Of a stretch of 64,000 bases of DNA, positions 50,177-50,699 are shown piece after piece. Made by a program: the position numbers and the translations under genes. The DNA comes from Escherichia coli (GTDB taxonomy: Bacteria > Pseudomonadota > Gammaproteobacteria > Enterobacterales > Enterobacteriaceae), in the NCBI RefSeq assembly GCF_003334765.1, contig NZ_QOWT01000019.1, one strand, 5' to 3'. Each line of letters opens with the position of its first letter. The stretch's first letter is position 1. Below the pieces are notes generated by a model that was not told the DNA's origin, did no database searches, and worked only from the letters and a program-made list of their open reading frames with translations.

Positions 50177-50699
50177 TTGTCATCCCTCCTCAGGGACGTA
50201 ATAAGTTGATCCATCAATTATCAATGCATAGAAAACATATTATGTTTCGCGCTAACGATTATGCTGCGTTACAGACGAATGGTTCAATTATTCTTTCCCC
50301 TAAGTCCGAATGTGGACATATATAATTTATGGAGAAAAACACGCATCAAATTCATAAAAGCACAGTATTTCAACATGTTGCAGATAATTTTGTTTTTGAA
50401 GCATACGCATAATAAATATCACAAACACAAACCAGATAAATATCCTATGAATATGCAACAAAGTTTTAATTATTCAATTTATAGCAGCGCAACCAAACTC
50501 CAAAAAATAATAACCAACAGCTATAAATAAAGATTAAAAATATTTTCAGTGAATATAAAATTATTGCTGTTTCTATTAAAAAGATGTCCTGGCCTCTCTT
50601 CCATTCTCTTCTTGTCAACATCGCGACAACTTTCGTAAAACATCCCTACCCTGCTTCAGGTATACTATGCCCCTCGATTCCACAAACATCAGGCAGACC

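Follow-up and report, generated by a model that had tools for sequence, protein, structure and literature searches.

A composite divergent control region between the autotransporter gene ehaB (yaiT) and hemB in Escherichia coli, with an ehaB promoter probably silenced by H-NS

The spacer between the autotransporter gene ehaB (yaiT) and hemB, studied here in a 64,000-nt stretch of Escherichia coli DNA (contig NZ_QOWT01000019.1; the whole stretch is called the window below), is probably, at a probability that we put at roughly 0.7, a composite divergent control region of three blocks in which the ehaB promoter is silenced by H-NS and hemB is expressed independently. The first block, the ~75 bp before hemB, would comprise a core promoter (50627–50642, with TATACT at 50661–50666) and a short conserved 5′ UTR, and the second, the ~145 bp before ehaB, a weak sigma-70 promoter, a palindrome near −59 and a leader of ~75 nt with two GGA hairpins. 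The ~300 bp between them (core 50326–50520) would form a third block, very AT-rich and unconstrained, that runs on into the AT-rich 5′ portion of the sequence coding for the passenger. H-NS would polymerise over this AT-rich island of ~1.4 kb and keep the promoter of ehaB silent under ordinary growth, and expression would then require relief from H-NS (for example through c-di-GMP, as in the Salmonella orthologue) and/or a regulator acting at the palindrome. A second brake, probably CsrA, would act at the level of translation through the hairpin over the Shine–Dalgarno (SD) sequence, and hemB, at the GC-richer edge of the island, would be transcribed on its own. Read in this way, the spacer is a further case of an AT-rich control region, probably silenced by H-NS, before a cryptic adhesin gene. 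Its parts and neighbours, in window coordinates, are as follows.

50177–50699, no strand: ehaB(yaiT)–hemB divergent intergenic region, 523 bp, GC 0.34
47270–50176, minus strand: ehaB/yaiT, autotransporter adhesin of 968 aa, intact, called EhaB by RefSeq
50183–50196, minus strand: ribosome-binding-site hairpin of ehaB, UCCCU-GAGG-AGGGA, 6 nt upstream of the AUG (MFE fold and comparison of 63 leaders)
50201–50221, minus strand: second leader hairpin, AUAAUUGA-UGGA-UCAACUUAU, with GGA in the loop (MFE fold and covariation)
50231–50248, minus strand: 5′-proximal leader hairpin, GAAACAU-AAU-AUGUUUUC (MFE fold)
50250–50252, minus strand: predicted ehaB transcription start, placed from the hexamer positions, 6–8 nt downstream of the −10
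50258–50263, minus strand: ehaB promoter −10 hexamer CATAAT (promoter scan and cross-species conservation)
50282–50287, minus strand: ehaB promoter −35 hexamer TTGAAC, with an 18-nt promoter spacer in nearly all of 51 loci
50304–50317, minus strand: 14-bp palindrome GTCYG-N4-CRGAC, in the window GTCCACATTCGGAC, one arm of which is imperfect, at a conserved position
50326–50520, no strand: hypervariable AT-rich centre, not alignable between genera
50521–50626, no strand: hemB-distal stretch, conserved within Escherichia only and not in Citrobacter or Salmonella
50627–50642, plus strand: conserved block CAACTTTCGTAAAACA over the hemB −35 region, a −35 and/or regulator site
50661–50666, plus strand: hemB −10 hexamer TATACT, kept as TAnAnT in all genera
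50678–50695, plus strand: hemB 5′ UTR and ribosome-binding region TTCCACAAACATCAGGCA, conserved between genera
50700–51674, plus strand: hemB, porphobilinogen synthase of 324 aa (RefSeq annotation)

The limits of the spacer are exact to the base in both the ORF list and the RefSeq annotation, because the ATG of ehaB lies at 50176 on the minus strand (seen as CAT at 50174–50176) and that of hemB at 50700 on the plus strand, and the original prediction of an AT-rich divergent spacer of ~520 bp between yaiT and hemB is thus confirmed. Its GC content falls to a minimum of 0.27 at 50400–50599, against a window mean of 0.51, and only 0.9% of the 523-bp stretches in the window are as AT-rich as the spacer itself. 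The low-GC tract does not end at the ehaB start codon: it continues into 49350–50075, the 5′ part of the passenger-coding region of a gene whose barrel and signal peptide are conserved and whose passenger part (~48300–50077) is hypervariable and AT-rich. Together with its surroundings (48719–51927, the spacer and 3.2 kb around it) the spacer shows 100% identity with E. coli K-12 MG1655, in which it corresponds to NC_000913.3 389728–390250, and K-12 data therefore apply to it directly. K-12 carries an IS3 insertion, at the equivalent of 48718/48719, which makes the K-12 counterpart yaiT a pseudogene, whereas the gene in the window is intact. The spacer was found in 5422 of 5426 complete E. coli genomes, in a single copy per genome and in strongly allelic form, and neither the nine RefSeq genomes checked nor the curated MG1655 record annotates any feature within it. 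It is ordinary non-coding, AT-rich E. coli DNA with the conserved promoter of one neighbouring gene at either end.

That the spacer is non-coding follows from the fate of its open reading frames. Fifteen ORFs of at least 20 aa touch it, among them an 89-aa frame at 50261–50530 with an ATG start and a translation rich in lysine, isoleucine and asparagine. When 10 Escherichia sequences were aligned (the window, six distinct E. coli loci, L003–L008, and three loci from other Escherichia, L011–L013), this frame was disrupted by frameshifts from 2-nt indels and by early stops in seven of the nine other sequences, and frames of 63, 51 and 44 aa were likewise frameshifted or stopped in other alleles. 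Two short frames survive, of 29 aa (50549–50638, plus strand) and 40 aa (50521–50643, minus strand), each open in nine of the 10 sequences including the window; the DNA beneath them belongs to the conserved hemB-proximal stretch and is 90–98% identical. Their variable sites are spread over the three codon positions as 5/5/7 and 7/6/8, with no excess at the third position, in comparison with 1/0/4 and 2/3/11 in the real coding sequences of hemB and ehaB that adjoin the spacer, and neither has a counterpart in the spacers of Citrobacter or Salmonella. The suggestion that the small ORFs are spurious is thereby borne out: across strains they are broken or vary evenly over codon positions, and no conserved ORF with coding-type substitutions appeared.

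It could still be argued that the spacer conceals an unannotated small protein, whether the 89-aa product or one of the two encoded within 50521–50643, or else a small RNA; the 89-aa frame is, after all, called as a 'hypothetical protein' in several hundred assemblies and once was in MG1655 too, and the two surviving frames are open almost throughout Escherichia. We regard such a gene as very improbable. The label 'hypothetical protein' is the only one that spacer ORFs carry in public databases, the longer frames are lost in other alleles, and the surviving ones lack both the third-position excess and the counterparts in other genera. As to RNA, a scan of 49900–51000 gave no Rfam match at E ≤ 10, no terminator-like site was detected within the spacer by a terminator scan, and K-12 has no plus-strand start site there (corresponding to the minus strand of the window), so that neither a family match nor a pairing of promoter and terminator marks a small or cis-regulatory RNA. 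Moreover, the curated MG1655 record includes small proteins known from ribosome profiling, such as ytiB nearby, yet leaves the spacer empty. The spacer ORFs can safely be left unannotated; the demonstration that they are noise, together with the base-level anatomy that we establish below, is what the present analysis adds.

The ehaB side of this anatomy emerges from a comparison between genera, for which a scan with the EhaB barrel, taking one genome per species, yielded 74 loci; the conserved elements were compared in ~60 species of Enterobacteriaceae. In ~50 of the 74 loci hemB and ehaB are divergent neighbours, separated by spacers of 371–617 bp with a GC content of 0.31–0.38 in nearly all species. 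Constraint between genera covers the ~145 bp adjoining ehaB, with palindrome, promoter and leader; within Escherichia conservation extends over the ~150 bp nearest ehaB, of which the first 75 nt show no variation. In the sense of the mRNA, the module consists of the palindrome GTCYG-N4-CRGAC, 16 nt, the hexamer TTGAAC, 18 unconserved nt, the hexamer CATAAT and a leader of 60–85 nt. Hardly any species departs from (G)CATAAT, also where hemB is not the neighbour, although Buttiauxella has one-base variants such as ACATAAT, and the 18-nt stretch between the hexamers is exact in length and shows no conservation of sequence. Such a pair of hexamers, 16–19 nt apart and conserved across ~60 species while the sequence between them varies, is what a sigma-70 promoter would be expected to show, and we take TTGAAC-18-CATAAT to be a conserved and intrinsically weak promoter of this class. 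Buttiauxella and Atlantibacter, in which hemB is located elsewhere, still carry this module upstream of ehaB, and the module therefore belongs to ehaB. From the hexamer positions we infer the exact start of transcription, predicted at 50250–50252, and with it a leader of ~75 nt. Consensus scanning by itself says little in DNA of this kind, as promoter-like sites are not enriched in the spacer (5, against 3.0 ± 1.8 in shuffled sequences); the TTGAAC-18-CATAAT pair was also flagged by that scan and later backed by conservation. Also predicted was TCCACA-18-AATAAT, but its −35 falls within an arm of the palindrome, which reads GTCCG in other species, and this second promoter was rejected for that reason.

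The palindrome itself lies exactly 16 nt upstream of the ehaB −35 in ~48 of 51 loci, which centres it near −59, and its two arms match perfectly in Salmonella (GTCCGGATCCGGAC), as they do in the B2-type alleles of E. coli. A palindromic site held at fixed phasing to a promoter in so many loci makes a candidate operator for a dimeric regulator. Within the 64-kb window eight further copies of the palindrome occur against 5.5 expected, an absence of enrichment that gives no regulon signal. One conceivable regulator is encoded next door: of the 74 enterobacterial loci, 71 have iprA (yaiV) directly downstream of ehaB. The gene, apparently transcribed from a promoter of its own, specifies a winged-helix protein with a weakly cNMP-binding-like N-terminus, that is, with a Crp/Fnr-like architecture. 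With its 5-4-5 layout near −59 the palindrome resembles FNR-family sites in geometry, and this geometry together with the synteny makes IprA a candidate, which would then recognize a new half-site; we nevertheless consider it quite unlikely that the palindrome will prove to be an IprA operator. Were it so, ehaB–iprA would constitute an ancient, self-contained cassette of adhesin and regulator, IprA would counteract H-NS silencing at the ehaB promoter, adhesin expression would be tied to the oxidative-stress phenotype of iprA, and the adjoining hypervariable spacer would tune the strength of silencing lineage by lineage.

Downstream of the predicted start, the ehaB leader folds by minimum free energy into the three hairpins listed above, although the stability of the whole fold does not differ significantly from that of shuffled sequences (z = −1.4). 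The case for the individual hairpins comes instead from comparison of 63 leaders from ~60 species. The hairpin nearest the start codon encloses the SD sequence GGAGG and two GGA motifs; its stem is essentially invariant, with 99% of cells in the alignment able to pair and no covariation, and its loop varies (GAGG, UGGG, UAGG) and still keeps the GGA. The sequence around it, GUCCCUGAGGAGGGAUG (around 50183–50196), is conserved between genera. In the second hairpin the core AUUGAUGGAYCAAC (50205–50218) is nearly invariant, and three pairs of the outer stem change on both sides (AU33/UA8, UA35/GC12 and AU26/UG13/UA4), for a covariation score of 0.106 compared with at most 0.066 in slid controls. 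Other genera have a different hairpin in place of the 5′-proximal one (50231–50248), where the alignment is too poor for pair counts. A reading of the leader sequence TTGATGGATCAA as a Fur box or FNR box was discarded: the spacing is wrong for FNR, the symmetry of the sequence breaks down in Enterobacter, and it is better explained as an RNA hairpin.

The arrangement of GGA motifs in this leader, with UGGAU in the loop at 50205–50218 and GAGGAGGGAUG in and around the SD hairpin, 23 nt apart, is of the type seen in CsrA-repressed leaders. It resembles those of pgaA and glgC, in which two or three GGA motifs lie 10–60 nt apart, one in an upstream loop and one over the SD sequence. For the Salmonella orthologue yaiU, one CsrA site has been predicted by CSRA-TARGET and none recovered by CLIP-seq (PMC6347204, Table S2), and in a csrA mutant both ribosome footprints and RNA of yaiU rose by 0.9 log2 (~1.9-fold), in mLPM only (PMC6347204). 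The gene is flagged there as 'repressed by CsrA' in mLPM, with translation efficiency unchanged (PMC6347204). The orthologue thus departs from the CsrA-repressed leaders in that CLIP-seq is negative and the effect is small and lies at the level of RNA rather than of translation efficiency. Carrying this modest effect over from Salmonella, we consider control of the ehaB leader by CsrA plausible.

At the opposite end, hemB appears to need only ~75 bp of upstream DNA. The part of the spacer constrained between genera is here confined to those ~75 bp, with core promoter and 5′ UTR; within Escherichia conservation reaches further, and the hemB-proximal ~180 bp (50521–50699) are ~87–98% identical. 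A natural deletion speaks to the same point. In strain 4848, a blood isolate, an IS1-associated deletion has left only 54 bp upstream of hemB, and the end of IS1 contributes a −35, TTGGCA, 18 nt upstream of TATACT; this hybrid promoter fits both the assignment of TATACT as the −10 and the sufficiency of ~75 bp. For hemB, an essential gene of haem synthesis, so short an upstream sequence is apparently enough. An in-frame ATG at 50667, upstream of hemB, is not the annotated start. A SoxS ChIP peak has been reported in the Salmonella hemB–yaiU region, with no motif given (PMC10268841), and a reading of the conserved hemB block as a marbox was set aside, as the match is poor by eye and that paper provides no motif to compare.

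The silencing of ehaB by H-NS is the part of the explanation that draws most on Salmonella. In S. Typhimurium the region between hemB and yaiU (seaB, STM0373) is the positional orthologue of the spacer, with hemB, a divergent autotransporter gene and iprA. Its spacer of 511 bp has a GC content of 0.341 and an AT-rich, unconserved centre, and it carries the same palindrome, the same TTGAAC-18-CATAAT pair, the same GGA hairpin and the same SD hairpin. It differs in that its centre contains no sequence alignable to that of E. coli and that its palindrome is perfect, and its downstream gene differs from that of K-12, which is broken by IS3. The Salmonella yaiU promoter is bound by H-NS in EMSA, ITC and ChIP-qPCR (PMC10657408), with an ITC Kd of 0.29–0.46 μM over the four promoters tested, yaiU among them (PMC10657408); the same paper refers to yaiU as already reported to be repressed by H-NS and shows that c-di-GMP prevents H-NS from binding at its promoter (PMC10657408).

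The E. coli data agree with repression in composition and in expression, namely an AT content above background and little or no laboratory transcription (K-12, one condition). Cappable-seq of K-12, in a single growth condition, detected no start site in the yaiT direction anywhere in the spacer: consecutive plus-strand sites fall at 388394 and 389570 (U00096.2, that is, NC_000913.3 minus 776), and since nothing lies between them none lies in the spacer. Taking orthology, composition and silence together, we infer that H-NS occupies the spacer in E. coli as well. The 10-bp high-affinity motif of H-NS is uninformative in this respect, with three matches at two or fewer mismatches and ~3% of same-size stretches doing as well, and we set the motif count aside as weak evidence. 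A literature search pairing yaiT with H-NS found no E. coli report of derepression in an hns mutant, and the ExcludonFinder paper gives the yaiT–ytiB pair and not hemB–yaiT.

UpaC and other E. coli autotransporters are repressed by H-NS, and the ehaB locus shares with the silenced promoters of such autotransporters and adhesins an AT-rich island that extends over the promoter and the 5′ coding region, silence in laboratory culture, and recurrent inactivation of the gene by IS elements. Unlike xenogeneically silenced AT-rich DNA, the locus has not been recently acquired; gene pair and promoter module are syntenic across the Enterobacteriaceae, and H-NS would here act on an old, core-like locus. 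The original prediction had read complex or silenced regulation of yaiT from the length of the spacer. Silencing has gained indirect support, both from H-NS binding and repression in Salmonella and from the missing K-12 start sites; length alone has turned out to be no signal, with only ~145 + ~75 bp under constraint. A precise and testable anatomy of the ehaB/seaB promoter and leader, conserved across the Enterobacteriaceae, should be useful for asking why an autotransporter that is a vaccine candidate in STEC and Salmonella stays silent in culture.

A more sceptical view would hold that the middle of the spacer has no function, being AT-rich and hypervariable only through mutation bias, absence of constraint and hitch-hiking with the recombinational exchange of the hypervariable passenger domain next to it, and that ehaB is silent because a weak promoter lacks its activator rather than through H-NS. 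There is something to be said for it: the centre is unconserved in sequence between genera and the spacer differs in length from 371 to 617 bp, strain 4848 tolerates the loss of the entire centre, and the promoter combines a −35 that departs from consensus with an 18-nt spacer, in a region where the H-NS motif shows no clear enrichment. Even so, we think it unlikely, given that a long AT-rich spacer has been kept in every genus despite the turnover of its sequence (GC 0.31–0.38 in nearly all species), and that direct binding and repression by H-NS are known for the Salmonella orthologue (PMC10657408). On the preferred explanation of a silenced control region, the centre would presumably serve as a platform for H-NS or as a spacer.

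The centre is also where E. coli strains differ. Among 5423 records, spacer identity to the window is at least 99% in 869, 95–99% in 317, 90–95% in 1990 and 80–90% in 2246, and in 50326–50520 the E. coli allele types are only 61–68% identical. Between the window and the loci L003, L007 and L008, third-codon divergence is 2–14% in hemB, tauBCD, iprA and the ehaB barrel, compared with 32–39% divergence in the centre, and in the centre E. coli allele types differ from one another at least as much as they differ from E. whittamii or cryptic-clade Escherichia. In L004 the passenger domain is that of the window, yet the centre, at only 91% identity to that of the window, falls in a different allele group, which indicates a mosaic. 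One might conclude that the alleles are adaptive regulatory variants, spread by recombination and setting lineage-specific expression of ehaB and/or hemB, and the excess of divergence over the flanks, the large share of records at only 80–90% identity, allele types within E. coli as far apart as, or further apart than, E. coli from E. whittamii, and the mosaic L004 would all accord with this, as would the fact that the phenomenon is on record for E. coli (PMC5890482). The parts of the spacer that look functional, the promoter modules and leaders, are nevertheless the same across alleles, and the switch may therefore be neutral; adaptive variation strikes us as rather improbable. As a reading of the centre, it is compatible with the main explanation.

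That alleles of such different sequence might instead reflect an invertible, fimS-type phase-variation switch for the adhesin is a thought suggested by the phase-variable promoters known from further autotransporters of this species (UpaE; PMC6083910). The probability of this is in our view negligible: all significant matches between alleles are collinear, reverse-strand matches reach at most 10 nt, the inverted repeats inside the region are short, AT-rich and imperfect, and no recombinase gene lies nearby in the RefSeq loci compared. Without flanking inverted repeats of note and with a single orientation observed, inversion was rejected, and an origin of the centre from a repeat or mobile element was rejected as well, the sequence being present once per genome and containing no meaningful repeats.

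The allele pattern fits, as far as sequence comparison goes, a partly 'switched' intergenic region. Switched intergenic regions, or horizontal regulatory transfer, are known from E. coli (Oren et al., 2014, summarised by Thorpe et al., 2018, PMC5890482). With the switched regions described there (PMC5890482) the spacer shares identical flanking genes, alleles of less than 90% identity between them, a divergence far above that of the flanks and incongruent with them, and signs of mosaicism. It differs from the regions described there (PMC5890482) in that only the central ~200 bp are exchanged and both promoter modules are kept, and in that the alleles are collinear and weakly alignable, not unrelated. 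The locus is a clear case of partial switching, with replacement confined to the non-functional-looking middle.

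The passenger-coding part of ehaB (yaiT in K-12), the autotransporter adhesin gene transcribed divergently from hemB, is a second hypervariable island besides the variable centre (50326-50520) of the ehaB-hemB spacer. Among E. coli allele groups, identity across this part is only ~45-75%, while the barrel (47273-48172) and signal peptide are 97-100% identical, and the passenger island is set apart from the variable centre by ~250 bp in which signal peptide, leader and promoter are conserved. Three features lie within or at the edge of the gene:

48300-50077, minus strand: passenger-coding part of ehaB, hypervariable between allele groups
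48779-48835, plus strand: ytiB (b4767), encoding the 18-aa K-12 small protein YtiB, antisense inside ehaB
50177-50183, minus strand: nearly invariant out-of-frame AUG, 7 nt ahead of the ehaB start codon (GGGAUGACAAAUG)

YtiB is present in the window in the same form as in K-12 (MIGINVAIFTNVQRRTVS), and may be allele-specific because its coding site falls within the hypervariable passenger region. The out-of-frame AUG begins a 27-codon ORF (50100-50183) and is no obvious start, being too near the Shine-Dalgarno sequence of ehaB; it may instead be conserved as a piece of a GGAUG CsrA-type site. Cappable-seq places a weak start site (score 1.8) at K-12 U00096.2 389570 (+), equivalent to window ~50081 (minus) and thus ~95 nt within the ehaB coding region, as is typical for spurious intragenic initiation in AT-rich DNA.

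Intact in the window, ehaB (47270-50176) has been disrupted independently in several strains, the insertion sequence differing from one to the next (comparison loci L002, L005, L006 and L009):

K-12/J53: IS3
strain A8: an IS3-family element other than that of K-12/J53
FDAARGOS_433: IS2
strain 4848: IS1 plus a deletion

The variety of these disruptions across strains points to repeated loss of the adhesin.

The intergenic regions beyond ehaB and hemB involve two further features:

51675-51780: hemB-tauD spacer, 106 bp in the window
46559-47182, minus strand: iprA (yaiV), adjoining ehaB across an 87-bp gap (47183-47269)

The hemB-tauD spacer shrinks to 39 bp in the B2/D-type genomes L003, L007 and L008, and the additional DNA in the window includes an imperfect GC-rich palindrome (CCCTCACCCTAACCCTCTCCCCAAGGGGGCGAGGGGAC), which we take to resemble a boxC-type repeat. 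The order ehaB then iprA occurs in 71 of 74 enterobacterial loci, and published work assigns to the gap between them a separate, constitutive promoter that has an H-NS site (PMC3946193), as well as a CyuR site predicted at -75 (PMC11408624) and a HusR SELEX peak (PMC12844172).

Elsewhere in the window, two stretches (55020-56038 and 39932-40914) equal or exceed the ehaB-hemB spacer in AT-richness, their GC minimum of 0.28 falling near 55211, upstream of tauA; both are possibly additional H-NS-type targets.
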